In this document: piece by piece, positions 5,516 to 23,519 of the stretch
Numbering within the stretch: the first letter of the stretch is position 1
Layout of the letters: every line of letters starts with the position of its first letter
From: an uncultured Acidobacteriota bacterium
GTDB taxonomy: Bacteria; Acidobacteriota; Terriglobia; UBA7540
Length of the DNA stretch: 64,000 bases
NCBI GenBank assembly: GCA_963804995.1
Contig: CAWDSK010000005.1
Coordinates: 704,001-768,000, forward strand
Reading direction: 5' to 3'
The notes under the pieces: model-generated
What the model saw: the letters and a program-made list of their open reading frames with translations, nothing else
Told to the model about the DNA's origin: nothing
Database searches by the model: none
Position numbers and translations under genes: made by a program

Positions 5516-5529
5516 AACTGGCATAACAA

Positions 5530-7452
5530 ATGTGTGGAATATGTGGGGTAGTAGGCGTCACGGATCCTGAGCCGACGCTAAGTGTTGTGCGGCGGATGAT
5601 GGGGGAGATGTGTCACCGCGGCCCGGATGATGAGGGCATGTTCGTGGATGACTCCGTCACCCTGGGGATGCGCCGGCTCAGCATTATCGATCTCAACGGT
5701 GGACACCAGCCGGTGTTCAATGGCGACCGAACTGTCGTCGTCGTGTTCAATGGAGAGATTTACAACTTCCAGGAACTCCGGCGCACCCTCGAATCCCGTG
5801 GCTACCCCTTCCGGACAGGGAGCGACACAGAGGTTATCGTCTACGCCTACGAGGAATGGGGAGAGGATTGTGTGGATCACTTCGAGGGCATGTTCGCATT
5901 CGCCCTCGCGGAGACATCGAAGTCCACTCGCCGTGGCAATCCCCGGGTCCTGATGGCGCGCGATCGCCTGGGCATCAAGCCTCTCTACTACGCCCTCGTC
6001 GATGGCAACCTGATATTTGCTTCAGAAGTCCGCTCTCTCCTGGCTTCGGGTCAAGTTGAACCGCGGCTATCGCAGACGGCATTGCGCAGTTATCTCCTGT
6101 TTGGTTCGGTCGTGGAGCCCATGACGCTGGTCGAGGGCATCTATTCCCTGCCACCTGGGCATCGGATTATCATTTCGGCGGCTGGGCGCCACACCTCGGT
6201 TCGCCCCGAGCCCTATTGGGACTTCGCGGAGTCTGCTCGCCCCACTCTTGACACCAAGAAGCGAGAGCGTTGCTCCGCGACGGCGTTCCTGCGTTCGCTC
6301 CTGGAAGAAACGGTCGAGTCCCATTTGACCGCCGATGTGCCCCTGGGAGTTTTCCTGAGCAGTGGCATCGATTCCACCGCCCTCGTCGCCCTCGCGACCC
6401 AGAAGAAAGCTGCCGTGAACACCGTAACCGTGGTCTTCCCGGAGCAGGAGTTTAGTGAGGCGGAAGTCGCTCGTCGCACCGCGCAGCGATTTGGAACGAA
6501 TCACCAGGAACTCACTTTGAGCGGCGACGACATGTTAACGCGCCTGACCGAAGCAGTGGGTGCTCTCGACCAGCCCAGCATGGATGGCATCAACACATAC
6601 TTTGTTTCCTGGGCGGCACGGCAAGCAGGCCTGAAAGTAGCCCTCTCGGGACTGGGTGGTGACGAGATTTTCGGAGGGTACAGCACCTTCCGCTCGACCC
6701 CGGATGCACAGTCCGTGGCGACTCTGGCGCAAACCGTCCCGGGGGGCCTCCGCTCCAGCCTGGCCTCCGCGGCGGAGGGAATCTTGGGGCATTTCCATAG
6801 AAAAGATTCTCACCGCAAGATGGCCGCACTGTGGCGAGACCCCAATTTTCTGCCGCACCCTTATTTCTACACCCGGCTCCTGTTTACCCCGGACCAGGTG
6901 TTGGGATTGTTGAAGGGTAATGACCTTGACTCGCCGGAACCATGGAAAGATTGGCTGGAGCAAACGGCGCGGGAATCGAAACAGCTTGATGATTTCACCG
7001 CCGTGTCTTGTCTGGAATCACGATCTTATATGGTCGACACCCTCCTCCGAGACACGGATGCCATGAGTATGGCTCACTCACTTGAGGTGCGGGTGCCGTT
7101 TCTTGACCATGCCCTGGTTGAGTTCGTAACTCGACTTCCGGGATCGATCAAGCAGACCGCCGGTGTATCCAAGTCGTTGCTGGTTGACGCCGTCGCTGAT
7201 CTGTTACCCGGGGAGGTTGTCTCGCAGCGGAAACGAACTTTCACTCTGCCGTGGGAGCACTGGCTTCGGGGCGCCCTGAGGAAGCAAGTGGAAACGGAGT
7301 TGAAGACCCTGGCGCCCGCGCTCGAGGAATGTCTCAGCGTTCGTGCTGTCGGGCGAGTCTGGTCAGATTTCCTACGCGGGCGCACGTCCTGGTCGCGCGT
7401 CTGGAGCCTTTTTGTTTTGAACCGTTGGGCTCAGCAACACCTGGGCTGCTGA
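5530..7452 (+). CDS. asnB: Asparagine synthase (glutamine-hydrolysing) family amidotransferase
   Basis: MCGICG start, RGPD, RLSIID, FNGEIYN, LSSGIDS, SGLGGDE, EVRVPFLD. Confidence 0.93.
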   Translation: MCGICGVVGVTDPEPTLSVVRRMMGEMCHRGPDDEGMFVDDSVTLGMRRLSIIDLNGGHQPVFNGDRTVVVVFNGEIYNFQELRRTLESRGYPFRTGSDTEVIVYAYEEWGEDCVDHFEGMFAFALAETSKSTRRGNPRVLMARDRLGIKPLYYALVDGNLIFASEVRSLLASGQVEPRLSQTALRSYLLFGSVVEPMTLVEGIYSLPPGHRIIISAAGRHTSVRPEPYWDFAESARPTLDTKKRERCSATAFLRSLLEETVESHLTADVPLGVFLSSGIDSTALVALATQKKAAVNTVTVVFPEQEFSEAEVARRTAQRFGTNHQELTLSGDDMLTRLTEAVGALDQPSMDGINTYFVSWAARQAGLKVALSGLGGDEIFGGYSTFRSTPDAQSVATLAQTVPGGLRSSLASAAEGILGHFHRKDSHRKMAALWRDPNFLPHPYFYTRLLFTPDQVLGLLKGNDLDSPEPWKDWLEQTARESKQLDDFTAVSCLESRSYMVDTLLRDTDAMSMAHSLEVRVPFLDHALVEFVTRLPGSIKQTAGVSKSLLVDAVADLLPGEVVSQRKRTFTLPWEHWLRGALRKQVETELKTLAPALEECLSVRAVGRVWSDFLRGRTSWSRVWSLFVLNRWAQQHLGC

Positions 7453-7500
7453 CTTGGCGGTTCTCGCCTGAACGCGGGCAAGACCCTTACGGACCCATCC

Positions 7501-9294
7501 ATGAACATTCTGGGAATTAACGCTTATCACGCCAACGCCTCTGCGGCGCTCTTGTGTGACGGGCGGCTGGTGACGGCGGTGGAGGAAGAACGCTTCAACC
7601 GCGTGAAATACGCGGCGGGCTTTCCAGCAACCGCGGTCCGGCACTGCCTTTCTGAAGCCGGACTGACCATCAAGGACATTGATCACATCGCGATTCCGCG
7701 TAACCCCTGGGCCCGGATTGCGACGAAGCTCTTCTACGCCGTCCGCATGCCGCGTTTTACTCTTGACCGCTACCGGGCCATGACCCACTTCCGTGGGATT
7801 CGAGAGGACCTTGCCGCGGCGTGTGAGGTTGACCCGCAGGCCATTCGCGCCCAGCATCATCGCGTTGAACACCACGTCGCGCACTTGGCCAGCGCCTTCT
7901 TCGTCTCACCCTTCGATCGGGCGGCCGTGCTTTCTACTGACGGATTGGGCGACTTCGCGAGCACCATGTGGGCAACGGGAGAAGGCAACCGCCTCAACGT
8001 CCACGGAGCGGTGGCGTTTCCCCATTCCCTGGGACTTTATTACACCGCACTCAGCCAGTACCTGGGATTCTGGAGATTCGGTGACGAATACAAGGTGATG
8101 GGATTGGCCGCGTACGGCGAACCGAGCCAGGTTGAGGAACTCCGTCGCATTGTCACGGCCGGCAACGGCAAAGGGTTTGCGCTTGGCCTCAAATATTTCT
8201 GCCACCACCGGACGGGGCCGGAGATGACCTGGCAGGAAGACGGCAAGACTCCCGTTCTGGGTCAGCTTTTTTCCCCTTACCTCGAGGAGCGCCTGGGAAA
8301 GACGCGCACTGCCGCCGAGCCGGTCGGCAAAAACCACAAAGACCTTGCTGCCTCGATGCAAGCGGTCCTGGAAGAAGCGTATTTTCGATTATTGAACCAC
8401 TTGCACCCCATATCCGGTCTAAGCCAGGTGTGTCTGGCAGGGGGTGTGGCTTTCAACTGTGTGGCGAATGGCAAGATTTTCGATAACACGCCGTTTTCAG
8501 AAGTTTACGTCCAGCCCGCCGCCGGTGATGCCGGACTGTCCGTGGGCGCAGCCTACTACGTCTATCATCAAATCCTCGGGCAGCCGCGCAGCTTCGTCAT
8601 GGAGCATGCGTATTGGGGACCGCAGTTTACCCCGGAGGCTATCGGACAGGCTTTGCGAGACAGCCAAGCCAAGGGTTCGAGTCTCCCTGTGCGCAGATTC
8701 TCCGACGAGGAGTTGGTGCACATCACAGCCAAACACCTCGCCGATGGCAAAATTGTGGGATGGTTTCAGGGGAGGGCAGAGTGGGGCCCGCGCGCGCTGG
8801 GAAACAGAAGCATTCTGGTTGATCCACGTCGCGCCGAAATGAAGGACATCCTCAATCAGAGGATCAAACACCGGGAACCCTTTCGCCCTTTCGCTCCTTC
8901 CATTCTGGAAGAGTCCACTGCACAATTCTTCGAGCGCTCACACCCCTCGCCTTTTATGAACCTTGCCTATTCTGTGCGCCCTGACAAGCGCGCCACGATT
9001 CCTGCTCCTACGCACGTGGATGGAACTGGCCGTCTCCAGACCGTGAGCCGCCGGACCAATCCTCTTTATTGGTCGCTGATCAAGGAATTCGAAAACCTCA
9101 CCGGCGTACCCGTCCTGCTCAACACTTCCTTCAATGAAAATGAGCCAATAGTCTTGAAGCCGCAAGAGGCCATCGACTGCTTCCTCCGAACCCGGATGGA
9201 TGTTTTAGTGCTGGGGAATTACGTGGTTGAAAAACCGCCGCAACCCCCCGCGCCCGAGGACCGTGCCGCAGCAGAGAAGATCGTGAAGGCTTGA
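7501..9294 (+). CDS. Carbamoyltransferase (NodU/CmcH family)
   Basis: EEERFNR, EHHVAH, EYKVMGLAAYG, GGVAFN, GPRALGNRS, LNTSFN. Confidence 0.93.
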   Translation: MNILGINAYHANASAALLCDGRLVTAVEEERFNRVKYAAGFPATAVRHCLSEAGLTIKDIDHIAIPRNPWARIATKLFYAVRMPRFTLDRYRAMTHFRGIREDLAAACEVDPQAIRAQHHRVEHHVAHLASAFFVSPFDRAAVLSTDGLGDFASTMWATGEGNRLNVHGAVAFPHSLGLYYTALSQYLGFWRFGDEYKVMGLAAYGEPSQVEELRRIVTAGNGKGFALGLKYFCHHRTGPEMTWQEDGKTPVLGQLFSPYLEERLGKTRTAAEPVGKNHKDLAASMQAVLEEAYFRLLNHLHPISGLSQVCLAGGVAFNCVANGKIFDNTPFSEVYVQPAAGDAGLSVGAAYYVYHQILGQPRSFVMEHAYWGPQFTPEAIGQALRDSQAKGSSLPVRRFSDEELVHITAKHLADGKIVGWFQGRAEWGPRALGNRSILVDPRRAEMKDILNQRIKHREPFRPFAPSILEESTAQFFERSHPSPFMNLAYSVRPDKRATIPAPTHVDGTGRLQTVSRRTNPLYWSLIKEFENLTGVPVLLNTSFNENEPIVLKPQEAIDCFLRTRMDVLVLGNYVVEKPPQPPAPEDRAAAEKIVKA

Positions 9295-9342
9295 TATCTC
9301 GCGTCGCGATATGCCGATCCGGTACCACACATTGATTAACAA

Positions 9343-9410
9343 CCCTCTCCGAGGGGAAGGGTGGACCGCAGCCCACGTTTTCATCGGCCGGGGCGGGACG
9401 GGTGAAGGGG
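9343..9410. repeat. REP-like element (CCCTCTCC...GGTGAGGGG family)
   Basis: Similar to sequences at ~16265-16315, 16708-16838 and 56967-57147. Confidence 0.65.
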
Positions 9411-9503
9411 TTACTCGCGGGTTCGGGGCGTTTGAAGATTCCAGGAATTCAAAACCGATTAGCCCCGGCAAACCCGTGACGCGAATTCCGCGCTAACAAC
9501 TAG

Positions 9504-10697
9504 ATGCGCATCCTTCTGCTAAACGAATATTTCCCCCCGGACACGGCGGCGACTGCCCACATGGCAGCGGCCGTGGTGGATGCGCTGGCCGAACGTCATC
9601 AAGTAACCGTGCTCTGTGGGCGGCCCTCTTACGATCCGTCCGAGAGGCACCCGTTTTACCTCTTTCGGCGTGACCAGCGGGGCGCGGCAGTGGTGGAGCG
9701 CGTGGGCTCAACCACCTTCCCACGCTTTCGCATGCTGCATCGAGTTTGGAATTATCTCACCTACGTGGTTCTCTCGGTTCCACGCGCCCTGATGGTACGG
9801 ACAGACTTGATCATGGCCATGACCGATCCTCCCTTTGAAGGGATCGTCGGTGCCTTCGTGGCCTGGCTCAAACGCAAGCCGTTCGTCTACAACATTCGCG
9901 ACCTTTATCCGGAGATGGCGCTCGCGGGCAACATCGTTCGCCCCTCCTGGTGGGTGGGGACCTGGGAGCGGCTTCACCGCTGGGCGCTCCGGCGGGCGAG
10001 GCGCGTGATCGTGCTGGGAGAAGACACTCGCGAACGCATCATTGCCAAAGGCATCGATCCTGCGCGCGTGGTCGTGGTCCGGGATGGGGCGCCCGCCACG
10101 CCGCCGGTAACGGGTCAAGACCATCCTATCGTCCAGGAGATTCGTGACGGCTTTTCTTTTGTAGTTCTGCATGCCGGCAACCTGGGCTTTTACGGAGCTT
10201 GGGAAACGGTTATCGAGGCTGCCGAAATGCTCGATCACCAAGGTGTCGGGTTCGTGTTCGTGGGCGAGGGGGCTTTACGTGCCCAAGTGGAAGCTGCAGC
10301 CCATGGGGTCGAGGGGATCAGGTTTCAGCCCTTCCGCCCTGCCGATCAAATTCCTTACGTCTTGGCTGCTGGAGACTTGCACCTGGTGACGGTCAAACGC
10401 GGGCTGGAAGGTGTCGTGGTTCCCAGCAAGCTTTATGCAATCCTGGCGGCGGGCCGTCCGGTATTAGCCCTGGCTCCCGAGGAAACTGACGCAGCCCGGG
10501 TGGTGCGCCGGATGGGTTGCGGAGTGGTTGTCGACCCGGACGATCCCGCTGCCACCGCCCGAATTATCCACGAACTTGCGCACGACCGTGAGCGCGTGGC
10601 CCGCATGGGTGAACGCGCCCTTGCGGCGTCGAAGAACTTCGGGAGAGAAGAAGAACTTCAACTCTTCCGACGGGTTATTGAGGAGGTGCCATGCTAG
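9504..10697 (+). CDS. GT4 glycosyltransferase (WbuB/WcaI-like)
   Basis: EYFPPD, RDLYPE, HAGNLG, VPSKLYAILAAGRPV. Confidence 0.88.
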   Translation: MRILLLNEYFPPDTAATAHMAAAVVDALAERHQVTVLCGRPSYDPSERHPFYLFRRDQRGAAVVERVGSTTFPRFRMLHRVWNYLTYVVLSVPRALMVRTDLIMAMTDPPFEGIVGAFVAWLKRKPFVYNIRDLYPEMALAGNIVRPSWWVGTWERLHRWALRRARRVIVLGEDTRERIIAKGIDPARVVVVRDGAPATPPVTGQDHPIVQEIRDGFSFVVLHAGNLGFYGAWETVIEAAEMLDHQGVGFVFVGEGALRAQVEAAAHGVEGIRFQPFRPADQIPYVLAAGDLHLVTVKRGLEGVVVPSKLYAILAAGRPVLALAPEETDAARVVRRMGCGVVVDPDDPAATARIIHELAHDRERVARMGERALAASKNFGREEELQLFRRVIEEVPC

Positions 10698-11758
10698 GCG
10701 GAGTGCTGACTTTCACCGTAGCCTTTGCAACCTCCTGGGGTTTGACACTTCCCATACGGCGGATGGCTCTCCACTGGGGGTTGGTTGACCACCCAAGCCC
10801 GCGCAAGATTCATCGCACCCCGATTCCGTTGTTCGGGGGAATTGCCATTTACTGCGGTACGGTCCTGGCCATCACTTTGTTTGTGGACAGCCGGGCGCGT
10901 GGCCAGATCTTTGGCATTCTTGCCGCTTCGACACTCTTGTTGATCGTGGGCATTCTCGATGACCGCAAGCTGCTGCACCATCAAATCAAGTTATTTGTCG
11001 CCATGCCCCTGGCAGCCTTGACGCTTGTGGCTTTGGGAGTCACAACGCACGTGGGATCGGCCCTTCTACCGGGGCCTGTTGGAGCGGCCCTTGACATAGC
11101 GCTTACACTGCTCTGGGTTGTTGGCATCACCGCCGCCTACAACATTTTCGATCACATGGACGGTCTCGCCAGCGGCATTGCTGCCATGGCCTCGCTGTTT
11201 TTCACGTTGCTGGCGATCCGGGAAGGTCAGGTTCTGGTAGCGACTTTGGGGGCTGCGGTTCTTGGCGCCTCGCTGGGGTTTCTGGGATGGAATTTTAACC
11301 CTGCCAAGATTTTCATGGGAGACGGCGGTGCCATGTTTCTGGGCTTCATGGTGGCAACCTTAGGGCTCAAGCTGCGCCTCGAAGACGTGCCGGAAGCCAC
11401 CAGTTGGATGATTCCGGTGCTGCTTTTGATTGTCCCCATTTTCGATACCACGCTGGTTGTGATTTCTCGATCCCGTCGCAGATTGATTCCCTTTGCTTCG
11501 CCCGGTAAGGACCACACTGCCCACCGTCTGGCGAATGTGGGCTTGGGACAGCGCGGCGCCGTCCTGGTGCTTTATGCCGTGGGAGCTGGTTCTGGTCTCG
11601 TGGCCTGGCTGGTTTGCCGTCTATCCGTGGCCGCTGCTTACGTTGTCGCAGGTGTGGTGACGTTAGCTGTTCTGGCCGCGCTTGTGGCACTTCGAGCGGT
11701 TTCCCTACGAGCCCCAAAGCAGGCCTGGGACCGCGACGTAGGGTTTGTTCGGTTGTAG
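10691..11758 (+). CDS. MraY/WecA family undecaprenyl-phosphate sugar-1-phosphate transferase
   Basis: Polytopic membrane protein; RKIHRTPIP, GILDD, NIFDHMDGL, IFMGDGG, GKDHTAHRL; possible +1 frameshift near 11691 affecting the C-terminus. Confidence 0.9.
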   Translation: MLGGVLTFTVAFATSWGLTLPIRRMALHWGLVDHPSPRKIHRTPIPLFGGIAIYCGTVLAITLFVDSRARGQIFGILAASTLLLIVGILDDRKLLHHQIKLFVAMPLAALTLVALGVTTHVGSALLPGPVGAALDIALTLLWVVGITAAYNIFDHMDGLASGIAAMASLFFTLLAIREGQVLVATLGAAVLGASLGFLGWNFNPAKIFMGDGGAMFLGFMVATLGLKLRLEDVPEATSWMIPVLLLIVPIFDTTLVVISRSRRRLIPFASPGKDHTAHRLANVGLGQRGAVLVLYAVGAGSGLVAWLVCRLSVAAAYVVAGVVTLAVLAALVALRAVSLRAPKQAWDRDVGFVRL

Positions 11759-11892
11759 CGATAGTCTCCCTAGCACCCCCAAGAGTGGGGTATACTGTGG
11801 CGGCTAAATTGCCCCCGGGATAGGAAATTGGATGGCAAATGATTTCGAACTTGGCCGCTCATCTGACGGCGGACATTTTTGCATGAGGATGC

Positions 11893-13071
11893 GTGGCTAG
11901 GCTCCAACGAACCCCTCACCAAATTGCGATTGTTGGCGGATCGGCTGCTGGCCTTTTTACCGCCTATTTGCTGGCCCGCGCCGGACGCGAGGTGCAGGTC
12001 TTTGAGGGCCAGGACCAGCTCGATTCGGCCTCGCGCACTCTGATTGTTACCGATCGAATGCGCGAGACCCTGGGTGGGCTGGGCGAAAAGGCAGTCGTCA
12101 ACGAGATCCGGCAATTTGAGTTATTCACGGACGGACGAGCGGCCCAAATCGCGCTCCGCCGCCCTGATCTTGTTATTGAGCGCAGCACGCTTATCAATGA
12201 ACTGGCCGGCGCGGCCCAAGGGGCGGGAGCCCGCGTTTTGTTCGGCCGAAAACTCCTCTCTCTCCACGGACAAGACCACAGTTTGACGCTGCGCATGGGC
12301 CGCAGCCAGGGTGGCGGCACGGAGGAGGCGCAGTTCCGCATCGTGGTGGGCGCAGACGGAGCTGGCAGCCGAGTGGCTCAGGCAGCGGGCTGGCGCAAAC
12401 AGCGTACAGTCCCGTTGGTACAGACGGTTGTTGACTTACCCCCCGGAATGCCCCCCAGCACAGTTCGGGTTTGGTTTGTTCCCGATGACACGCCTTATTT
12501 CTACTGGCTCATTCCCCACTCACCCACGCAGGCCGTAGTAGGTCTCATCGGTGAACACGCGTCGGAGACAAGGTTGGCGCTGGAACGCTTCATGGAGAAG
12601 CACCACCTCAATCCCCTGGAATACCAGGGGGCCAGGATCCCCGTCTATACCGGTTGGATTCCGGTTCGCCGTCAGTTGACGGGTGGCGACGTTTACCTGG
12701 TTGGGGATGCTGCCGGCCACGTCAAGGTCACGACGGTGGGTGGAATTGTCACCGGCTTCCGCGGAGCTATCGGAGTTTCGGAGGCCATTCTGAACGGCGG
12801 GTCCAGCCGCAAGCTCGGTGCCCTGCGACGCGAGCTGAATACCCACCTGCTGATCCGCAAGCTGATTCACGGTTTCAATCAGGCTGATTACTCGCGTTTA
12901 GTAGATCTCTTGAATGCCCGCACTCGCAAGGATTTGGCCTCTCACACGCGTGATGAGCCCGGCGGCGTGCTACTGCGCCTCTGCCTCCACCAGCCGCGCT
13001 TGTTACTGCTGGGTCTGCGTGCCTTGATCAGTGGCGCCAGCTTCCCCGGCCCGTCCCCCACGGGCGTGTAA
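11893..13071 (+). CDS. FAD-dependent oxidoreductase, geranylgeranyl reductase-like
   Basis: IVGGSAAGL, GADGAGS, VGDAAG...GGI. Confidence 0.75.
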   Translation: MARLQRTPHQIAIVGGSAAGLFTAYLLARAGREVQVFEGQDQLDSASRTLIVTDRMRETLGGLGEKAVVNEIRQFELFTDGRAAQIALRRPDLVIERSTLINELAGAAQGAGARVLFGRKLLSLHGQDHSLTLRMGRSQGGGTEEAQFRIVVGADGAGSRVAQAAGWRKQRTVPLVQTVVDLPPGMPPSTVRVWFVPDDTPYFYWLIPHSPTQAVVGLIGEHASETRLALERFMEKHHLNPLEYQGARIPVYTGWIPVRRQLTGGDVYLVGDAAGHVKVTTVGGIVTGFRGAIGVSEAILNGGSSRKLGALRRELNTHLLIRKLIHGFNQADYSRLVDLLNARTRKDLASHTRDEPGGVLLRLCLHQPRLLLLGLRALISGASFPGPSPTGV

Positions 13072-13462: not shown

Positions 13463-14365
13463 ATGCGGAAGATTGACCGCCTCGTGTGGGCGGAGGGACT
13501 GTGCTTCGAATCCTACGGCGTGAAGATCGGGATTCGTTCGAGCCAACCTGGCGTAATGGACCGGCTCCGACCGTTTCTGCCGCCACGCTGGGAAGCGATC
13601 GAACCGCCGCGCCGTCTCGATGCGCTCTACTCCTGGGTGGTAGGCGGTGAGCGCAAGCCCAAGGTGCGAACTTTCGACGTGATGTACGCGGGCGTGGGCC
13701 GGATCGCGCGGACGCTCAAGCCCGAGGAACTGTTCGAGACGTTTGAAGCGAACTTGCGGTTGACGGTCGCCCTGCTTTCGCGGCGCTTCGTGTTCATCCA
13801 TGCGGGTGCGGTCGGCTGGCGTGGGCGCGCCATCCTGATACCCGGGCGCAGCTTCACCGGCAAGTCGACCCTGGTCGAGGCGTTGGTGCGTGGGGGCGCT
13901 GAATACTTTTCGGACGAATATGCGATGTTGGATAGAAGCGGGCGTGTGCATCCCTTTCCCAAGCCGATTTCGGTCCGGATGCCGGTAACGCTCCGGCAGG
14001 AACCTCGCACCCTGGAAGAGGTCGGCGGCCGGGCTGCCGAATGCGCCATGAAGGTCGGCGCCATACTCGTCACCCGTCACCGTAAGGGTGCACGGTCGCG
14101 CTTTCGCAGGGCCTCACCCGCCCAAGGTGCCCTTGATCTTGTTGCGAACGCGGTGGCGGCACGCTGGGCTCCGGCGCGCGTGCTGCGTGCCACCTGCAAG
14201 GCGAGCGCAGACGCTATGGTGCTCCGCGGCCCGCGCGGCGAAGCGGAAGAAGCAGTGGAACGGTTGTTCGCGATTCTGGACTGGCGAGAAGCAGTACACA
14301 TCAAATCCCCCTCAGGATGTGTTTATGACCTCACAGAAAAATATGCCTGGGCGGCCCAAGGCTAG
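13463..14365 (+). CDS. HPr kinase-related P-loop protein
   Basis: IHAGAV, Walker A GRSFTGKSTL, YFSDE; adjacent to PqqD gene. Confidence 0.75.
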   Translation: MRKIDRLVWAEGLCFESYGVKIGIRSSQPGVMDRLRPFLPPRWEAIEPPRRLDALYSWVVGGERKPKVRTFDVMYAGVGRIARTLKPEELFETFEANLRLTVALLSRRFVFIHAGAVGWRGRAILIPGRSFTGKSTLVEALVRGGAEYFSDEYAMLDRSGRVHPFPKPISVRMPVTLRQEPRTLEEVGGRAAECAMKVGAILVTRHRKGARSRFRRASPAQGALDLVANAVAARWAPARVLRATCKASADAMVLRGPRGEAEEAVERLFAILDWREAVHIKSPSGCVYDLTEKYAWAAQG

Positions 14366-14858
14366 GACCAAGGGCCTGATCGTCGAAGAAGCTGGGAGTG
14401 AGCTGTTGGTTTATGATCGTAACAATGATCACGTCCATTCTCTGAACGGTCCTGCCGCCCGCATCTGGAGGCTCTGCACCGGCAGACGCACGGTGGAACA
14501 GATTGCCTCGGAGCTCGATATCCCTCTCGACCCCGCCGAGCGGAAGCTGGTGGTCCGCGACGCCATTACAAAATTCGAACGTCTGGGTTTGGTTGATGCC
14601 GCCGAGGGCGCGCCTGCCAATCCGTCGCGTCGGATGTGGGCTCGACGAATCAGCATTGGCGTGGCGGCGGGGGTGGCCCTGCCGCTAGTGACTTCCATCA
14701 TTGCGCCCACCTCTGCGTACGCGGCTAGCAAGCTAGGGACTGGCGCCACATGTTCTACGAGCACGCAATGCGCGTCGGGGTGCTGCTGCTCGAACAACAG
14801 TACTGGTCATCACTTCCAATGTGAGACGTCAGCGGTCTGCGGTGGTTCCTGTGAATAG
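14325..14858 (+). CDS. PqqD/RRE domain fused to an RR-containing signal-like segment and an 8-Cys peptide
   Basis: ATG 14325 after CAGGA; ELLVYD...HSLNGPAARIWRLCTG (PqqD-like), then SRR...VALPLVTSIIAPTSAYAAS, then Cys-rich tail. Confidence 0.75.
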   Translation: MTSQKNMPGRPKARTKGLIVEEAGSELLVYDRNNDHVHSLNGPAARIWRLCTGRRTVEQIASELDIPLDPAERKLVVRDAITKFERLGLVDAAEGAPANPSRRMWARRISIGVAAGVALPLVTSIIAPTSAYAASKLGTGATCSTSTQCASGCCCSNNSTGHHFQCETSAVCGGSCE

Positions 14859-14939
14859 GGATAGCTAGAGTTGGTATTTTTCCCATCCGCACTCGACGGC
14901 CTCTTGCCCTCTTGGTTCGGTCGCGCGATAAAAATGCAA

Positions 14940-14964
14940 AGGGTACGGCAAGCCGTACCCCTAC
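14940..14964. repeat. GTAG-type REP hairpin, possible terminator between convergent genes
   Basis: GGGTACGGC-AA-GCCGTACCC stem followed by CTAC. Confidence 0.55.
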
Positions 14965-15007: not shown

Positions 15008-16189
15008 TTATCCGTCTTGATCCGCGTTGATCTGCGGCCCGAACTGATTTTCGCTTGACCCTCGCCGCCTAGTCAGTTTTTCCCAGCCCGCTTGCAGCGA
15101 CCACCGCATCACGCTCCAAGCGATCCGCAACGGCCGCAGCGGGTAATAGAGGAAGAAGAGGAAACGCGGCAGGTGGATGAATCCCCAGTCCGCCAGCGTA
15201 GGCACAAACAGGCGGATAGCGGCAAAGCGCAGCCTTTCGGAAAGCGTCGGGAGCAATCGCGCCGAGAAGGCGATTTCGCTCGGTACCTGGAGAGACGCGA
15301 ACCCCTCGAGCGTCCGCGGGATTCGAGGCGCAAAGCCCGGGGGAGCGGGCGTGCCAAGTTGAGCGCTACAGGCGCCCAAGCTCAACTCGACGGCGTCGAC
15401 CCATCCCAAAGCCTGGGCCTTCTGCTTGACGATTTCCCAGTCGATTCCCCCTCGCGAGCAGAGCGCGTCCAAGTCCACTTGCCACTTCAGTTCGATCCAG
15501 CCGTGCCGGGCGGCGTGTACAGCCAGGTAAAGGAATTCCCACTCGGGGCTGAGCGCTAAGGTGGGACATCCGAAGAAGTTTACGGGGCGAGCCTCTCGCC
15601 AGACCTCACCGATCAGTTTCTCTTCGAGTCGTCCTCCCCAGACGAGGCCCCAGTGCAGTTCCAGCATAGCCTGACTTTCCTTGCCCATCAGGGTCCAGTC
15701 CTTGCCGTAGCGGAGCGTGAGGTCTTTGAAGAGGGGTGGACTCGAGTCGGGCCGGTATCCCGAAGCCCTCACGATCTCAAGGGCCTCGCGAGCGCGCTCC
15801 GGCTGAACCAGGATATCGAGGTCGCCCGTGAGGCGGAGAGAGACGTCGCCATAGAGCTCCTCGGCCAACGCGACGCCCTTGAGCGGGATTGCCGAAATTC
15901 CAGCCTTGCCCAGCAAGCGCAGCAGTCGGGCCAGCTCCTGGGCCAGCCGCAGGCTGCGGTTTCGATTGGCGTGCGAATCCCTCTGGAGCTTCAGGCGAAT
16001 CGGGTCAGGGACGCCCGGGAAACCCAAGAGATGGTGAGTGACCAGAGGCGACACCCGGTGAGCCTGCACGCGCTCGAGAAACTGGCCCCACCCGAGCGGC
16101 CCCGCCAGGATGTCGCGGGCGCGCCGCTCATCTTCCGGTGAGGGCCGCACCCGCGCCAACAGCAGGCACAACTGATCTTCCCGCGTCAT
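15008..16189 (-). CDS. Nucleotidyltransferase family protein (NTP_transf_5-like)
   Basis: LKGVALAEELYG...R..GDLDILV, ELHW, LAVHAARHGW. Confidence 0.85.
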   Translation of the reverse strand: MTREDQLCLLLARVRPSPEDERRARDILAGPLGWGQFLERVQAHRVSPLVTHHLLGFPGVPDPIRLKLQRDSHANRNRSLRLAQELARLLRLLGKAGISAIPLKGVALAEELYGDVSLRLTGDLDILVQPERAREALEIVRASGYRPDSSPPLFKDLTLRYGKDWTLMGKESQAMLELHWGLVWGGRLEEKLIGEVWREARPVNFFGCPTLALSPEWEFLYLAVHAARHGWIELKWQVDLDALCSRGGIDWEIVKQKAQALGWVDAVELSLGACSAQLGTPAPPGFAPRIPRTLEGFASLQVPSEIAFSARLLPTLSERLRFAAIRLFVPTLADWGFIHLPRFLFFLYYPLRPLRIAWSVMRWSLQAGWEKLTRRRGSSENQFGPQINADQDG

Positions 16190-17063: not shown

Positions 17064-17964
17064 GTGGTAATCCGCAGAATCCAAGCTGAGACTTGTCAAA
17101 TTGGATATGATCCCGAGGCTAAACTGAAGGAAAAGGCGCCGCTACTCGTACGGGCTTTCATTTTGCAGGACCGCCTGATGTCCGTGATGGTGCGCGCTTC
17201 CGCCATTATCAGAGATGAGATGCTCTGGGCCTGGACGTTGCCGGAAAGCCGTGAGCGGGCCAACCGAGCGATTTTCGGCCACGCGAGAACCTACTACCCC
17301 GGAGGCTCCACATTCGAAAGGGGCCTCTTCGACTGGGAGCGGGCCGCCATAACCTCTCCCCCTTTTCCACCTTCCGGCCGCATTCTTCTGGGTGGGGCGG
17401 GTGCCGGCCGCGAGCTGGCTGGACTCTGCAAGATGGGATACAAGGTTCTGGCCTTTGAGCCCTCAGCCGCGCTAGCCGAGGCGGCAGTCGCAGTGGCTGC
17501 TCCCTACCCGGAGAGCAAAGTCATCTGCGCCTCCTACCGGGATTCTTGTCCTGGCCGTGGAGAAGGGATCAGGCCCGCTTGTACCCCATGTTTGCCACGG
17601 GGAGTTCGACGGAGTCATTCTGGGCTGGACCAGCATTTGCTACGTGTGGAGACCTGAACGCGAGGCCCTGCTGAAGGCTCTGCGCACCATCGCCCCCCGC
17701 GCCCCGGTCCTGCTCAGCTACTGGTTGACTAGCGATCAATCGGAAGGCAGGCTCGGCAAGGTTCGGGGCTGGATCCGTCGCCTGCTACGCATTACAGGCG
17801 CCCGGACTTTGGCCGAACCCGGCGACGCGTTCTTCCCTTGGACGGGTTTTCTCCAGAGGTTGACGCCGGAGGAACTTCAATCGCTGGCGGATCGGACCGG
17901 TTATCAACCAGCTTACATGAGGAGTCAGCCTGAGCCCCACGCGATCTTTATCCCCTGCCCGTAA
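17064..17964 (+). pseudogene. Class I SAM methyltransferase with a +1 frameshift at ~17544 (possible artefact); start uncertain
   Basis: ILLGGAGAGRE, LAFEPS; ...SYRD continues in +1 frame as LVLAVEKG...FDGVILGWTSI. Confidence 0.65.
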
Positions 17965-18022
17965 CCCCGAGATGCGTCATGACAGATTGTGGACTTCATC
18001 TTGCTTGGCGTATTTCTGGCTA

Positions 18023-18201
18023 GTGGCACGGGCAACCTGCCCCGATGCATCGGGGTCTTGCCCGTGAGGAGACATGGCCAGGATGGCCATGCCACAGGAC
18101 GTGGCACGGGCAACCTGCCCCGATGCATCGGGGTTCTGCCCGTAAGGAGACATGGCCAGGATGGCCATGCCACAGGACGTGGCACGGGCATCTTGCCCGT
18201 G
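18023..18201. repeat. Tandem array, 78-bp period (~2.3 units), of REP palindromes
   Basis: Units start 18023, 18101, 18179; GTGGCACGGGC...GCCCGT and CATGGCCAGGATGGCCATG hairpins. Confidence 0.9.
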
Positions 18202-18477
18202 ACGGGGCGCCGGGGCGCCCGCAAGAAGCCTGGCGGTGCAAACTTCGGCCGTTTGAAACATTAAAATTGGAATCTTGGTTGACACCGCTCAGGGGAAGGG
18301 CTTAGCCTGCTGATAGCTTTTTCGTTTGAAATAAGGATTTCGGTGGCGCCGGAGGTCATGTTACCGTAGGTGGGGCCCGAGTCGGCTGTCCACGGCATAG
18401 TGACAGAGTACTATTTGGAGCTTGGCACGAGGATGCGGAACCTGTCCGCAGTCGAGTTGGGAATAGGGGATTTCTGA

Positions 18478-19407
18478 ATGGAAGTGCAGGACAAACATCG
18501 GCGGTATTTCCGCATTGCCGGCATTACGGTATGTGTAGAAAGCGACCTGGATTTTGACACCGTCAAGTTCAAGCCGGAATTCGCAGCCTTCGCGGTGGAG
18601 GGACCTGGCGATGACAACGTGACGCTGCGCCACGATTTCGACCTGGCCGACATGAAAGACGAAGACTTGGGAACGGAGGTGTACCGCAAAGCGCCGTGGT
18701 CTATCTCCCGCAAAGGCAATACGTGGCACTATCGCAGTATCTGGTCGCCCGAAAATGAACCCGGGCTGCACCACGTTGCGGTTTTTGATGCCCACTACAC
18801 GCACGCCACGATTCGCAGTCCAGCGCGCTGCAAAGGATTGCTTCGCCAAGTGGGTTGGCACTCGCTCTCGCTCTTCCCGACCGATCAGATTTGGCTTGCA
18901 CCCTTGCTCGCGGATCGCAGCGCGGTCTTGCTCCACTCGGCGGGGGTGATACTGAACGGACAGGGTTTGGTCTTTGCCGGTCATTCGGATGCGGGCAAGT
19001 CCACGATGGTGACTATGCTGAAGAGCGCGGCTGGGGCAGCAAATGGCCACTCGCCTTTGAAGGTGGAAATCCTCTGCGACGACCGCAACGTGGTGCGGCG
19101 CTGGAGGGAGGGTTGGCGCGTGCATGGGACTTGGAGCCACGGCGATGTGACGGAAGTGTCAGCGGCGTCCGCGCCCTTGGCGGCAATTCTATTCCTGCAA
19201 CAGGACACGCGCAATGAAGTCGTCCCCATGACTGATCGCAAGGAAATCTGGAAGCGTTTGCTCTCCACGCTCATCAAGCCCATGGTAACCGCTGAGTGGT
19301 GGCAAAAGGAGTTGGACGTACTGGAGCAGATCGTGAGAGATGTGCCGTGCTTCACGATCCACTTTGATAAGAGCGGGGCAATCGCGGAGAACTTGTTGCG
19401 CCTATGA
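18478..19407 (+). CDS. HPr kinase-related P-loop protein (ScmC-like)
   Basis: LHSAGV, Walker A GHSDAGKST, LCDDRN, GTWSHG. Confidence 0.7.
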   Translation: MEVQDKHRRYFRIAGITVCVESDLDFDTVKFKPEFAAFAVEGPGDDNVTLRHDFDLADMKDEDLGTEVYRKAPWSISRKGNTWHYRSIWSPENEPGLHHVAVFDAHYTHATIRSPARCKGLLRQVGWHSLSLFPTDQIWLAPLLADRSAVLLHSAGVILNGQGLVFAGHSDAGKSTMVTMLKSAAGAANGHSPLKVEILCDDRNVVRRWREGWRVHGTWSHGDVTEVSAASAPLAAILFLQQDTRNEVVPMTDRKEIWKRLLSTLIKPMVTAEWWQKELDVLEQIVRDVPCFTIHFDKSGAIAENLLRL

Positions 19408-20567
19408 GCCAATTCGTCCGGCGGGTTAACAAGCTGGAGAAACCTGTTGCCTCGTGCCTCGAGCAGCTCGACATTGAGCTGACCGAGCGGTGCAACAACG
19501 ATTGCATGCACTGTTGCATCAATCAGCCTGCGAACGACGAGGACGCGCGGCGGCGCGAGATGACCACGGCCCAGGTCAAGGACATCCTGGAACAAGCTGT
19601 CAGCCTCGGGTGTCTGCAGGTGCGCTATACGGGCGGCGAACCGCTCCTGCGGCCCGAATTCGAAGAGCTTTACCTGTTCGCGCGGCGGCTCGGAATGAAG
19701 GTGGTGCTGTACACGAACGCACGCCTCATCACGCCCCACCTTTCCGATTTGTTGGCGCGCATCCCTCCTTTGGAGCCAATTGAAATTACGGTGTATGGGA
19801 TGCACCAGGAAACCTATGAGGCGGTGACGCGTGCGCCCGGGTCTTTCCGACAATTCTGGCGGGGCACAAACCTGTTGTTGGAACACAAGGTGCCGTTCAT
19901 CGTCAAGGGCGCCCTTTTGCCTCCAAACAAGCATGAGATCGACGAATTCGAAGCTTGGGCGGCGACGATCCCTTGGATGAGCGAACCGCCCAGCCATGGG
20001 AAGCACTTTGACTTGCGCAACCGCCGGGACGATGTAAACAAGAACCGACTGATTGAGTCGCTGCGCGTGTCTCCCGAAGAGGGACTCGAGGTGTCTTTGC
20101 GCAACAGCGCGAAGCGTCACCCCTGGACGCCGGAGCTGGCGTCGAGATTCCTGCGCCCGCCTGGCGCCCGCCTCTTCGATTGCGGTGCCTGCGCCGGACG
20201 CCACGCCTGTATCGACGCATACGGACGCGCCCAGCCCTGCATGGGTGTCCGCGCACCGGAGTTGACGCGCAATGTTGTGGGGGCTTCAGAAGGCGACCAT
20301 TGTTCCCTGCAAGATGCGCTGGATCAATTCACCCGCTTCGGCGATCTCCGCGCGACAAATCCTGACTATCTCCAGCGCTGTGCGGCGTGTTTTATCAAAG
20401 GCATATGCAGACAGTGCCCAGCCACGTCGTGGGCGGAGAATGGCGGGCTTGATACGCCGGTGGAATACGAGTGTGAAATCGCTCACGCGTGGGCGCGCCA
20501 CTTGGGCTGGCTGGGCGAGAATGAGCACGGATGGGAAGTGATGGATGGGTGGCAGAGGGTGAAGTAG
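19404..20567 (+). CDS. Radical SAM/SPASM peptide maturase 1
   Basis: CNNDCMHC, TGGEPLL, C-terminal CAAC...CRQCP SPASM cysteines. Confidence 0.9.
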   Translation: MSQFVRRVNKLEKPVASCLEQLDIELTERCNNDCMHCCINQPANDEDARRREMTTAQVKDILEQAVSLGCLQVRYTGGEPLLRPEFEELYLFARRLGMKVVLYTNARLITPHLSDLLARIPPLEPIEITVYGMHQETYEAVTRAPGSFRQFWRGTNLLLEHKVPFIVKGALLPPNKHEIDEFEAWAATIPWMSEPPSHGKHFDLRNRRDDVNKNRLIESLRVSPEEGLEVSLRNSAKRHPWTPELASRFLRPPGARLFDCGACAGRHACIDAYGRAQPCMGVRAPELTRNVVGASEGDHCSLQDALDQFTRFGDLRATNPDYLQRCAACFIKGICRQCPATSWAENGGLDTPVEYECEIAHAWARHLGWLGENEHGWEVMDGWQRVK

Positions 20568-20688
20568 TATAATTATGGGTTGTTGACCAATAACGACCGC
20601 CGGTTAAGAATCCTTTGCCCGGCGATCTTGAGAAAGTGACCTGCTGGTCAGGATGCAGGCTGCACTTAGGGAAGAAAAAGGAGACAAA

Positions 20689-20865
20689 ATGAGCATGGAG
20701 AAGAAGCAATGGGAGAGACCGGAACTCATCGTTCTGGCCCGAAGCAACCCAGAAGAAGTAGTGTTGACAAACTGTAAGGCGAATCCATATCCCACCGCCG
20801 GCAGTGGCAGATGTAAAACCAGTGGTAATGCTTGCACGTCGAACAGTGCTGTCGGCACGAGTTAG
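20689..20865 (+). CDS. Putative RiPP precursor peptide (58 aa)
   Basis: AAGGAG RBS; leader WERPELIVL resembles the (Y/W)xxPxL RRE motif; core with 3 Cys, rich in S/T/G/N; lies between rSAM and PqqD genes. Confidence 0.82.
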   Translation: MSMEKKQWERPELIVLARSNPEEVVLTNCKANPYPTAGSGRCKTSGNACTSNSAVGTS

Positions 20866-21008
20866 CCCTTGGTCCTCTGGGTTTTGGGCGCCCGAACGCC
20901 CCGCCCTTCTGACAAACCTCCCGCGAGTTGGAGGGTGCTGACCCACGTGCGGAATCATTATGTAACTTCCCAAGGGGGTATGCCAGCCAGAGCAGAGAAT
21001 TTTCGATT

Positions 21009-21347
21009 ATGACGCAACTTGGCCTTAACGCAGTTTGTGTCCCATCCCAGGATGTGGTGGCGCGCGTGATTGAAGGCGATCTGGTTATTGTGCCGCTGGT
21101 GGCCGGCATCGGTGCTGCCGACGACGAACTGTTCACCCTCAACGATACCGGGAAGGCGATCTGGGACCGGCTCGATGGAAAAAAGACCCTGAAGGACGTG
21201 GCGGCGGAATTGGCCGCGGAGTACGAGGCGCCGATCGAGAGCATCGAGAGTGACGTCCTGGGCCTGACCACAGAGCTTTTCGAGCGGAAAATGCTCGTCA
21301 AAGTTACTCCGGAGACAGCCAGTGAGCTCCCAAACCCAACCCCGTGA
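21009..21347 (+). CDS. PqqD family RiPP recognition element
   Basis: VVARVIEGDLVIVP...LFTLNDTGKAIWDRLDG...IESDV. Confidence 0.9.
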   Translation: MTQLGLNAVCVPSQDVVARVIEGDLVIVPLVAGIGAADDELFTLNDTGKAIWDRLDGKKTLKDVAAELAAEYEAPIESIESDVLGLTTELFERKMLVKVTPETASELPNPTP

Positions 21348-21813
21348 GCTTCCGCTTTCCGGTCCGGACCTGAAGGGGCTTTTGAGCGCCGTGTTGGCCA
21401 AGGGAGCGGCCTTCCGCTTCCGGGCCAAAGGCGCCAGCATGGCGCCCTTCATCAGGGATGGAGATGTGGTTACGGTCTCACCAGTTCCTGGCACGAACCT
21501 TCGCCCTGGCGACGTGGCGGCATTCACAAATCCCCAGACGGACCGCCTGGTCATCCACCGGATTGTGGGAACCGCGGATGGCTCTTTCCTCATCAAGGGG
21601 GACTCCGTCCGCGAGGGGGATGTTCTCGTTCCGGCCTGTCAGGTCCATGGTCGCGTGACCCGAGTCGAGCGCAAGGGGCGGAACTTGCGCCTTGGCCTCG
21701 GCTCGGAGCGTATTCTAATCGCTTTCCTCAGCCGAACTGGCCTGTTGCCCATACTGCTGGCGCCGGTTCGGGGGATCTACCGATTGATTGTTCCCAGGAA
21801 CCCCTCGGCATGA
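21322..21813 (+). CDS. S24/S26 family peptidase (candidate leader peptidase)
   Basis: GASMAPFIRDGD (catalytic Ser), VIHRI, IKGD. Confidence 0.8.
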   Translation: MSSQTQPRELPLSGPDLKGLLSAVLAKGAAFRFRAKGASMAPFIRDGDVVTVSPVPGTNLRPGDVAAFTNPQTDRLVIHRIVGTADGSFLIKGDSVREGDVLVPACQVHGRVTRVERKGRNLRLGLGSERILIAFLSRTGLLPILLAPVRGIYRLIVPRNPSA

Positions 21814-22961
21814 GCGAACCGAAGACGGCATCCATCCGCATCCAGGACTTCCCCCTCTGGGACAAACTCAAGGACCGGCGGGTGCCGCTCTCATTCGATC
21901 TGGAATTGACGGCGCGCTGCAATCTCGACTGCCGTCACTGTTACATCAATCTTCCCGCCGGTGACCGTGAGGTGCAGAAGCGGGAGCTATCCCTGGAGGA
22001 GATTGGCGCCATTGCCGACCAGGCGGTTTCTCTCGGCGCCATGTGGTGCTTGATAACCGGCGGCGAGCCCCTGCTGCGCAAGGACTTCACGGATATATAT
22101 CTGCTGCTGAAGCGGAAGGGGTTGCTGGTCTCAGTATTCACAAACGCCTGCCTGGTGACCGAAGAACACGTCAAACTCTTCCGCAAATACCCTCCGCGCG
22201 ACATCGAGGTCACCGTGTACGGCGCTAGTTCGGAGACGTACGAGCGGGTGACGAGGAGGCCGGGCTCCTTTGACGCCTTCCGGCGTGGCCTGAACCGGCT
22301 GCTGGATAGCGGCGTCAAGGTGCGGCTGAAGGCCATGGCCCTGCGGTCGAACTTGGTGGAATTGCCTGAGATTACCCATTTCTGCCGCGAGCGGACCAAG
22401 GACTTCTTCCGCTTCGACCCGTTGCTCCACCTGCGATTCGATGGCGACCCGCGGCGCAACGAAGAGATCCGTGCAGAACGCTTGACGCCGGGCGAGATCG
22501 TCGCTATCGAGCAGGCTGATGAGGAGCGGGCAGAGGCGTTGCGCAAGGGTTGCGACGAGCTGATCCAGCCGGAACTGAATCATGTGGGGTGCGACCACCT
22601 GTTCCATTGCGGCGCCGGAAACGGCAGCTTCACGGTGAGCTACGATGGGCATTTCCGCCTGTGTTCCGACCTGTGCCAGCCGGATTGCACTTATGACCTT
22701 CGCCAGGGCAGCCTGGCTGACGCCTGGCAGAACTTCGTCCCCAAGGTGCGCGACATGCGGTCAGCCAAGAAGGAGTTCCTCGAAACCTGCCGAGCGTGCC
22801 CAATCGTGAACCTCTGCATGTGGTGCCCAGCCCGCGCCCACCTGGAAAGCGGCAAGATGGACAGCTTCGTACCATACTTCTGTGAGGTGGCGCACGCCCG
22901 GGCCGCAGCCATCGGGGAGAGCGCCGGCCGTCCCTTGAAGCAAACTCCTGTAGTCCGATGA
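21810..22961 (+). CDS. Radical SAM/SPASM peptide maturase 2
   Basis: CNLDCRHC, TGGEPLL, CGAG, CRAC...CMWCP; paralogue of 19404 protein. Confidence 0.9.
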   Translation: MSEPKTASIRIQDFPLWDKLKDRRVPLSFDLELTARCNLDCRHCYINLPAGDREVQKRELSLEEIGAIADQAVSLGAMWCLITGGEPLLRKDFTDIYLLLKRKGLLVSVFTNACLVTEEHVKLFRKYPPRDIEVTVYGASSETYERVTRRPGSFDAFRRGLNRLLDSGVKVRLKAMALRSNLVELPEITHFCRERTKDFFRFDPLLHLRFDGDPRRNEEIRAERLTPGEIVAIEQADEERAEALRKGCDELIQPELNHVGCDHLFHCGAGNGSFTVSYDGHFRLCSDLCQPDCTYDLRQGSLADAWQNFVPKVRDMRSAKKEFLETCRACPIVNLCMWCPARAHLESGKMDSFVPYFCEVAHARAAAIGESAGRPLKQTPVVR

Positions 22962-23519
22962 CTACTTCCCATCTACACCTTCGACGAACACAATCAGGCG
23001 TTCTTCTTCATCAGCAACCGCGACACTGACCCACTCGCGCTGATGGCCTATCCCGATTTCACGCGCTTCAACTACACGACGCTGCCTTTGGAGAAGGTCC
23101 CCGGGAATCGCCAGGTGATTCTGGACATCGACTTCGACTTCTTCGCTTGCCGGGATTCGATTCAGAATCACATTGGCTATCAGTTGGAGGTGACCCAAGA
23201 CCAGTTTGCCGCCCGGGAGGCGCTCTTGCGCGATCCGACCCTCCGGTTCAGCGGGATGGCGTTCGATTTCACGGAAAAGGATGGCAGGCGCTTTGTTCAG
23301 GTATCACCCAAGAGGGGAAAGGACGTTTCCCATCTGCCCTCAAAACCGGAGATCGTCGCTGAGATCGGGACTCTGGTGAGCACGCTGGCGGCGAAGAAGG
23401 TCAGGCCGGGGGTCGTCACCCTATGCAGGTCCTGTGTAAGCGGGTATTGCCCCAGAGAATTCGCTGAGATGATTGAAGCCGAATTGAAACCACAACTGAA
23501 GCGTCTTCTTGAGGCGTAG
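22958..23519 (+). pseudogene. UPF0489-like protein, frameshifted near its start and apparently internally shortened
   Basis: ATG overlaps rSAM stop (ATGA); extra T at ~22967, then PIYTFDEHNQAFFF...ILDIDFDFF...TLCRS..SGYCP. Confidence 0.55.

Follow-up and report, generated by a model that had tools for sequence, protein, structure and literature searches.

The window considered here, a stretch of 64,000 nucleotides from an uncultured Acidobacteriota bacterium (assembly GCA_963804995.1, contig CAWDSK010000005.1, positions 704,001 to 768,000 of the forward strand), contains a gene for a protein of 177 residues, P0001, in which a recognition element of the kind associated with peptides made on ribosomes and modified after translation (RiPPs), an internal segment resembling a twin-arginine signal and a cysteine-rich tail follow one another in a single polypeptide. 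This three-part anatomy and the pattern of conservation that goes with it are real and not due to chance. An exported, cleaved and disulfide-rich product is its probable outcome; as to the complete chain of events, namely a self-chaperoned precursor that would be phosphorylated, exported through the Tat (twin-arginine translocation) pathway and cleaved to a disulfide peptide of 44 residues, we consider it evenly balanced between holding and failing. Each part of the protein has a known relative; a RiPP recognition element (RRE) fused to its own signal-bearing precursor is not described in those portions of the literature that were searched, the large RRE-Finder data sets, which possibly list such proteins, standing outside that search.

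Anatomy and family of the fusion protein

A PqqD domain had been proposed in the first-pass annotation of this DNA, and both profile and model bear it out. The fusion protein scores 30.8 bits against PF05402 (PqqD; cut-off 23.4), and in the AlphaFold model residues 9-92 adopt the three strands (18-23, 26-31 and 36-40) followed by three helices (42-50, 57-63 and 70-87) by which RREs are recognized, with a predicted local distance difference test (pLDDT) score of 89-94 over residues 11-90. Among known structures, the domain comes closest to TbiB1 and 6JX3, both of them lasso B1 proteins (Foldseek E 1.5e-4); 6JX3 superposes with Z 11.0 and a root mean square deviation (rmsd) of 1.8 over 83 residues, and the lasso B1 matches reach Z 10-11 overall. 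The start methionine is shared with the starts of the homologues. Downstream of the domain, the twin arginine, the hydrophobic stretch and the AxA motif are found in the order in which they had been read, with SRR at residues 101-103 and AYA at residues 131-133. The tail of 44 residues that would be released after A133 includes eight cysteines (C143, C149, C153, C154, C155, C166, C172 and C176) and two histidines, and ends in Glu.

The conservation of these parts can be followed in an alignment of 230 sequences (175 database proteins and 55 from the loci discussed below), picked with profiles and patterns that include the signal and the tail. R102 is kept in 228 of them, R103 in 227, P120 in 226, S124 in 194, P128 in all 230 and A133 in 215, with a small-x-small pattern at the predicted cleavage site in 211; on the tail side, S/T135 is present in 218, C136 in 184 and C143 in 218. 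When counted ungapped, Ser or Thr occupies the +2 position of the predicted mature peptide in 211/230 sequences, compared with 18% Ser/Thr in the remaining tail and 6 of 18 control signals. The anticipated contrast between a conserved N-terminal part and a hypervariable tail is evident among the 12 closest homologues, to which P0001 is 50-77% identical in the RRE, 66-80% in the signal region and 3-32% in the non-Cys tail, the conservation of the signal region being equal to or above that of the RRE.

The number of tail cysteines is even and at least four in 210 of the 230 sequences, odd in eight and two or fewer in 12. A cysteine tail is not universal among the homologues: eight tails are devoid of Cys, several of them consisting of collagen-like Gly-x-Thr repeats. 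The description of the tail of P0001 as an eight-Cys, knottin-like peptide holds for the number of cysteines and not for their arrangement: its framework, C-C-CCC-C-C-C, is shared by 5/230 sequences and differs from the commonest one, C-C-CC-C-C (88/230), which we take to be that of the inhibitor cystine knot (ICK). The similarity of the family profile to spider ICK peptides is weak and not significant (E 0.06-0.6), and one member matches UPF0506. As for the fold of the tail, the Atlas returned no usable match, the knottin sequence matches in the PDB were not significant and the fold searches were filled by the RRE.

Since the main sets had been selected with signal and tail, a control set of 59 proteins was drawn on the RRE alone. 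The RR-x-phi-phi motif (phi, hydrophobic residue) is present in 55 of these and the strict Pro motif, described below, in 47; within the latter group, an even Cys count of at least four is found in 45 proteins and Ser or Thr at +2 in 42. The remaining 12 carry mostly variant motifs, as judged by eye, while two stop just past the RRE and one is apparently frameshifted. A search within this subfamily for discrete RREs and for free precursors yielded 19 proteins of 30-75 residues, all resembling fragments or late start calls.

At E<=1e-30, the family profile (built from 26 homologues) finds 1,987 clusters of 50% identity, a number that rises to 6,364 at E<=1e-10; the clusters that match only at the weaker values, up to 1e-10, will include plain RREs. 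Three of the four Atlas clusters shown have 57-74 members, named 'hypothetical' or 'PqqD family', and none of the NCBIfam models scores above its cut-off for the fusion family. In one of the two RRE-Finder papers, 21% of PF05402 proteins are given as long and otherwise without annotation; the fusion does not appear in the consulted passages of either. The loci of named genomes lie mostly in Acidobacteriota, and also in Methylomirabilis, Nitrospinota, Dormiibacterota, Acidimicrobiales, Vulcanimicrobiota and on one Gemmatirosa plasmid. Within a sample of 201 genomes of the host phylum, 31 matched at E<=1e-10 and 12, the host genome included, did so across RRE plus signal. None of the 36 genomes of the host's own family (completeness 58-98%) gave a family match; the occurrence of P0001 is therefore patchy, and the gene was probably acquired together with the polysaccharide locus whose end it occupies.

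Some variation within the family may be recorded here. Two cysteines are kept in the RRE (C39 in 209/230 and C51 in 219/230), P0001 having Ser at position 39 (window 14439-14477, +). Two or three adjacent fusion paralogues that differ in their Cys tails are found at L061, L062 and L076, and the fusion copy of G069 is broken by a frameshift. Some tails are long domains (L047, 370 residues; P0104), and some members have a tail lengthened by a Hint-like domain (a weak match), the chaperone domain Peptidase_S74 or a long domain rich in Gly (P0144, P0152; L047:1102-2211).

The middle segment as putative export signal and putative ligand of the RRE

According to the available text of a 2026 review (PMC13673990), Tat signals conform to a general motif, Z-R-R-x-phi-phi, together with an AXA-like site. 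The motif is found in strict form in 164 of the 230 sequences and in 222 when Ala is counted; across the family, the distance from RR to A133 is 28-33 residues and a hydrophobic core is present. TIGR01409 is matched at E<=0.01 by 19 of 150 members, and the family profile also retrieves, from the host genome, four unrelated proteins by their N-terminal RR signals, besides matching weakly the signal peptide region of AioB. TatC is encoded in the host genome. The signal is internal, RR standing at residues 102-103 and not at the N-terminal position of class I substrates. A nested internal start ahead of RR was ruled out, as the frame contains no start codon from L89 to R102. In the classification of the same source, FecR (class V) is a Tat substrate with a folded domain, which is cytoplasmic, ahead of an internal and uncleaved signal, and small unfolded substrates are tolerated (PMC13673990). 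P0001 shares with FecR the folded domain before the internal signal; unlike in class V, the AxA conserved in its family suggests cleavage.

Of the two products envisaged in the first-pass annotation, a disulfide-rich or a metal-binding peptide, the former is favoured over the latter because of the even Cys counts and of the MauE/thioredoxin neighbours, MauE(-thioredoxin) genes adjoining the fusion gene at L078, L080 and L087 (two of the 55 loci plus the Gemmatirosa plasmid). Both features fit disulfides formed outside the cytoplasm.

Structure prediction had been named as the means to check whether the middle segment docks in the RRE, and the models are in agreement with docking. The pattern P-x-[VI]-x-[ST]-phi-x-x-P is present in the hydrophobic region of 217 of the 230 members and in none of 44 Tat-like signals of the same genome. 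A hydrophobic residue three positions before P120 is kept in 201/230, and the resulting phi-x-x-P120 fits the W/Y/LxxP recognition class described for B1/PqqD-type RREs in the available text of PMC12710340. AlphaFold places a strand at residues 122-126 both with the tail and after its removal; in the latter case only the RRE sheet remains to pair with, and pairing with it is predicted. In the structure search, the alignments of both models with 4WD9 chain A extend to residue 129 of the models and residue 1020 of the chain (Z 7.1-7.2, rmsd 5.2-5.4, the alignments being given by their range ends only), 4WD9 being NisB with the NisA leader. NisB is presumably 993 residues long, so that residue 1020, past its end, probably belongs to the bound leader, and the alignment is suggestive of a leader-like docking of the middle segment. 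The mass of 117.5 kDa reported for NisB (PMC4341554) was also considered in this assignment. A complex prediction with the RRE (1-95) and segment 99-136 in trans scored 0.03 and is uninformative either way. Overall, these models predict that the RRE binds its own signal in cis, at the Pro120 strand. Binding in cis by a chaperone placed ahead of a Tat signal has been described for an engineered NapD-signal fusion (PMC3712460; PMC4159696), although the fold of NapD is a different one and its signal is bound in helical form, as against the strand predicted for the RRE.

Putative modifying enzymes, proposed mechanism and alternatives

The surroundings of the fusion gene were compared across 56 loci, i.e. 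this one and 55 others (35 from named metagenome-assembled genomes), some of them from related genomes and therefore not independent, and several on short contigs. A kinase of the HprK-like type is encoded in 35 of them, directly upstream and co-directional in 28, which supports the earlier designation of the flanking kinase as a partner. A nucleotidyltransferase (NTase) of the NTP_transf_5 family is encoded in 27, directly downstream and co-directional in 22, and both enzymes are found in 21; at L044 there is an additional divergent NTase. An NTase, the second partner named in that annotation, recurs in the family; the one in the window lies convergently and belongs to another subfamily, and it may or may not be the cognate enzyme. 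No other NTP_transf_5 protein was found in the host genome, and the same convergent layout is seen at the Gemmatirosa locus. The suggested target of the modification was a Ser/Thr/Cys-rich core; S/T135 is, in fact, the only conserved hydroxyl residue past the cleavage site and, therefore, modification of a general Ser/Thr-rich core is not indicated.

A similar pair of enzymes is known from lasso peptides, where PsmK, an HprK-like kinase, and PsmN, an uncharacterised nucleotidyltransferase, put phosphate and hexose on a peptide Ser, as stated in the available text of PMC6993621 and PMC8498205. The phospho- and phosphoglycosyl-lasso tailoring systems (paeninodin PadeK; pseudomycoidin PsmK/PsmN) share with the P0001 locus the B1-type RRE fold, the HprK-like kinase and the nucleotidyltransferase, the likeness to PsmK/PsmN being drawn from their description. 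The P0001 locus does not qualify as a lasso locus: neither a lasso core nor a B2 protease is found among the scanned neighbours, the tail ends in Glu instead of Ser, and the RRE is fused to the precursor, with an export signal replacing the leader. As for the cyclase of lasso systems, the AsnB protein encoded at 5530-7452 is a full glutamine amidotransferase in the polysaccharide cluster, with counterparts near only 2/55 other loci.

The kinase led to the loci of the uncharacterised HPr-rel-A system, which comprise kinase A (TIGR04352), a PqqD-family chaperone (TIGR04353) and an NTP_transf_5 protein, and for which no paper naming the system was found in the literature searched. As at the P0001 locus, the genes of the RRE, the HprK-like kinase and the NTase are adjacent (here with the NTase convergent), but in HPr-rel-A a discrete RRE and a precursor are encoded by two genes, whereas P0001 joins them in one polypeptide; the two models remain under their cut-offs here (TIGR04352, 53.9 versus 200; TIGR04353, 24.6 versus 35), so that the locus does not qualify as a member. 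The order seen in Sphingomonas, i.e. hypothetical gene, discrete RRE, kinase and NTase, is kept in 65 of 82 HPr-rel-A loci, and two annotated records adjoin phosphate or phosphonate transport genes, not polysaccharide genes. The product of the upstream hypothetical gene has an N-terminal twin-arginine signal ending in [ST]-I-[RK]-P-A-x-A in 67/70 cases, a median of 16 residues from a Met and with Ser or Thr at +2 in 61/67, and is likely the substrate of the HPr-rel-A system. These split precursors, a set made of one close clade and one Vibrio, have longer, conserved and Cys-poor mature parts, unlike the P0001 family. Upstream twin-arginine genes are unannotated at L086, L089 and L091-L170, and the two that were tested have no Pfam match.

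In the mechanism that we propose, the RRE would hold the precursor by binding, in cis, the Pro120 strand of the signal, and this binding might mask the signal and retain the precursor in the cytoplasm, as NapD does with the NapA signal. The upstream kinase would then phosphorylate the precursor, probably at Ser135, and an NTP_transf_5 enzyme may go on to add a sugar (hexose) or a nucleotide to the phosphate group, in the way that PsmN acts after PsmK. TatC would engage RR, with the RRE possibly remaining cytoplasmic like the N-terminal domain of FecR, signal peptidase would cut after A133, and the 44-residue peptide would likely form four disulfides outside the cytoplasm. A bolder formulation, which we put forward as tentative, is that of a precursor with a built-in RRE proofreading chaperone, whose internal cleavable Tat signal would be masked until the +2 Ser/Thr is phospho-glycosylated, with release of one among thousands of hypervariable bacterial peptides, knottin-like or collagen-like; it would amount to a sixth Tat class and a new RiPP logic, and the same logic, in split form, would explain HPr-rel-A. 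As to function, secreted peptides with a binding or antagonistic activity are suggested by the hypervariable disulfide frameworks and the tandem paralogues, and a role at the cell surface by the setting in a polysaccharide locus.

A number of observations weigh against this mechanism. With regard to the signal, P0001 itself (SRRMWA) has W-A at the phi-phi positions and passes only with Ala counted, it matched none of the Tat-signal models in the Pfam/NCBIfam scan, and a signal that is internal yet cleaved fits none of the five Tat substrate classes set out in the available text of PMC13673990. With regard to docking, pLDDT is only 46-55 for residues 100-120 and 59-72 for residues 121-130, the model output being without contacts; mean-field coevolution on the 230 sequences, in which N41-P120 ranks third on the strength of two sequences and H38-S124 is weak, gives no reliable support for cis binding and was left out of its support; and the release of the signal from the RRE is without explanation in the model. 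With regard to the enzymes, the kinases of this type that have been characterised modify a C-terminal Ser, in the available text of PMC6993621 and PMC8498205, while the tails of the family mostly end otherwise. Neither enzyme is seen by profile in 15/56 loci, several of the loci being short contigs and L044 carrying a divergent NTase. Furthermore, the NTase of the window is 22-28% identical to the co-directional NTases of the family, which are 38-62% identical to one another; because of this divergence, of its convergent orientation and of the terminator-like hairpin at its end, it may not be cognate. The parallel with HPr-rel-A also has its limits: the Vibrio split precursor has Gly at +2, though in the same P-x7-P register, and the split precursors score a median of 1.2 bits against the family signal profile, compared with 7.2 for generic Tat-like signals. 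As such scores do not separate split precursors from generic Tat-like signals, the parallel is only architectural and homology of the signals is unsupported.

The same facts can be read in other ways. The protein could be exported and cleaved without being a substrate, the kinase and the NTase having as targets the envelope polysaccharide or its precursors, or else other surface proteins, with the RRE as a signal-masking or scaffolding chaperone only. The position of the locus at the end of a glycosyltransferase cluster, the recurrence of genes for WecA-like, Wzc, Wza and O-antigen ligase proteins near the homologues, the 15 loci that lack both enzymes and the placement of the window NTase on a separate convergent unit speak for this possibility, which we nevertheless regard as unlikely, since the kinase and the NTase hug the fusion gene in several phyla while the flanking genes vary, the HPr-rel-A loci keep the order precursor, RRE, kinase and NTase, the two annotated ones beside phosphate/phosphonate transport genes, and homologous enzyme types modify peptides in lasso clusters. 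Alternatively, the RR segment might be a RiPP leader that merely resembles a Tat signal, the core being cut and exported by a dedicated protease, either a C25 peptidase or the neighbouring S24/S26 peptidase with its ATP-binding cassette (ABC) transporter. C25 peptidase domains with His and Cys kept do occur near 14 of the 55 other loci, the S24/S26 peptidase and the ABC exporter are encoded 6-9 kb away, and the signal sits at residue 101 and not N-terminally; what renders this reading improbable is that the host genome has no C25 domain, that several C25 proteins start, by eye, with hydrophobic signal-like N-termini of their own, that the neighbouring peptidase and ABC genes possess their own precursor and RRE and have no recurrent equivalents at the family loci (one ABC match in 55), and that RR, the length of the hydrophobic region and AxA are all conserved. 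A C25 peptidase as an obligatory part of the system is rejected on the same ground of its absence from the host genome. The C25 domain ends large proteins at L031, L042, L043, L051-L055, L057, L058, L060, L061, L072 and L082.

The two other alternatives concern the fate of the tail. The topology of P0001 matches exactly that of class V Tat substrates as given in the available text of PMC13673990, and a FecR-like protein that crosses the membrane once and stays uncleaved, with a cytoplasmic RRE that binds another partner, an anchor and a periplasmic Cys domain, might act as a sensor or anchor. The long domains found in some tails are in line with this reading. The conservation of A133 and of the small-x-small pattern, however, resembles that of a kept peptidase site, and two invariant prolines and a Thr-Ser in the hydrophobic stretch poorly suit a permanent helix. 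In addition, some members have predicted self-cleaving C-terminal domains (S74, Hint-like), which are typical of released products, so that we give the membrane-protein reading a small chance. Finally, eight Cys and two His in 44 residues, with two radical SAM (S-adenosylmethionine) enzymes encoded 4.5-8 kb away, could be taken as signs that the tail remains cytoplasmic, binding metal like a metallothionein or serving as a thioether substrate. This appears very improbable given the prevalence of even Cys counts, knottin-type spacing as the commonest one, the conserved export signal and the occurrence of Cys-free collagen-like tails; moreover, a radical SAM gene is near only 1/55 other loci.

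If the proposed mechanism of a self-chaperoned, Tat-exported and cleaved precursor is correct, soil bacteria would possess an uncharted and very large repertoire of disulfide mini-proteins that are secreted, many of them knottin-spaced, which RiPP mining misses because precursor and RRE are one 'PqqD family protein'. The Tat substrate classes would be extended by an internal yet cleaved signal, an RRE would be found to act as a Tat proofreading chaperone, and a candidate substrate gene would be named for the HPr-rel-A system. On the practical side, the three genes would provide a test bed for NTP_transf_5 chemistry, and an RRE-signal cassette that tolerates any tail would be a possible tool to modify and export peptides.

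The locus and its surroundings

Table 1. Coordinates, strand and basis of the features of the fusion gene and of the flanking genes, in window numbering.
Feature	Position	Strand	Basis or remarks
HprK-related kinase, 300 residues	13463..14365	+	TIGR04352, 53.9 bits (cut-off 200); 41-nucleotide overlap with the start of the fusion gene; Walker A and SDE intact
RRE-signal-tail fusion gene, 177 residues (P0001)	14325..14858	+	open frame; sequence as quoted in the first-pass annotation
RRE (PqqD) domain spanning residues 9-92; three strands, then three helices	14349..14600	+	PF05402, AlphaFold, lasso B1 matches
Twin-arginine motif S-R-R-M-W-A, residues 101-106	14625..14642	+	SRR at 101-103; family conservation
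Candidate RRE-binding motif V117-x-x-P120-L-V-T-S-I-x-x-P128, in the hydrophobic region	14673..14708	+	conservation and predicted strand 122-126
Predicted signal peptidase I site A131-Y-A133	14715..14723	+	small-x-small conserved in the family
Ser135, +2 of the predicted mature peptide, candidate phospho-acceptor	14727..14729	+	conservation of the S/T column
Predicted mature peptide, residues 134-177, 44 residues, 8 Cys, framework C-C-CCC-C-C-C	14724..14855	+	sequence
Terminator-like hairpin, 10 pairs and T run, between the converging genes	14939..14962	-	hairpin scan
NTP_transf_5 nucleotidyltransferase, 393 residues, convergent	15008..16189	-	PF14907, 196.7 bits; KG and GDLD intact; module membership uncertain

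The number of terminator-like sites found, five compared with 3.9 expected in shuffles, is not significant alone, and the intergenic region between the fusion gene and the NTase gene folds no better than its shuffles (z 0.2).

Upstream of the kinase lies the polysaccharide cluster (window 1-13071, +), with several group 1 glycosyltransferases, a methyltransferase, the AsnB amidotransferase, a carbamoyltransferase, a WecA-like transferase and a gene of the geranylgeranyl-reductase family. At other loci, PEP-CTERM-type surface proteins are encoded near the module (L087:4914-6254, -; L061:4936-5691, +, Pfam), that of Gemmatirosa (L087) showing, by eye, a long Gly-Thr-Pro repeat.

A second, separate RiPP cluster occupies 17064-25641 (+). 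It comprises an ScmC-like kinase (18478-19407), two radical SAM/SPASM enzymes (19404-20567 and 21810-22961), a precursor of 57-70 residues with a W-x-x-P-x-L leader and three Cys (20653-20865), a discrete PqqD protein (20928-21347), the S24/S26 peptidase and the ABC exporter mentioned above, and the C-terminal half only of a peptide arginase of the FlmR/OhkR type (23043-23519). At its beginning, the open reading frames (ORFs) 17064-17657 and 17557-17964 (+) overlap in different frames and resemble one frameshifted methyltransferase-like gene, with no Pfam/NCBIfam match, and a tandemly repeated intergenic element at about 17990-18260 is visible as repeated peptides in spurious ORFs. Further downstream, the region 26152-45516 has the appearance of a mobile element (helix-turn-helix, PD-(D/E)XK, HNH, Uma2 and a small nucleotidyltransferase) and is continued by a small non-ribosomal peptide synthetase and a phosphopantetheinyl transferase.

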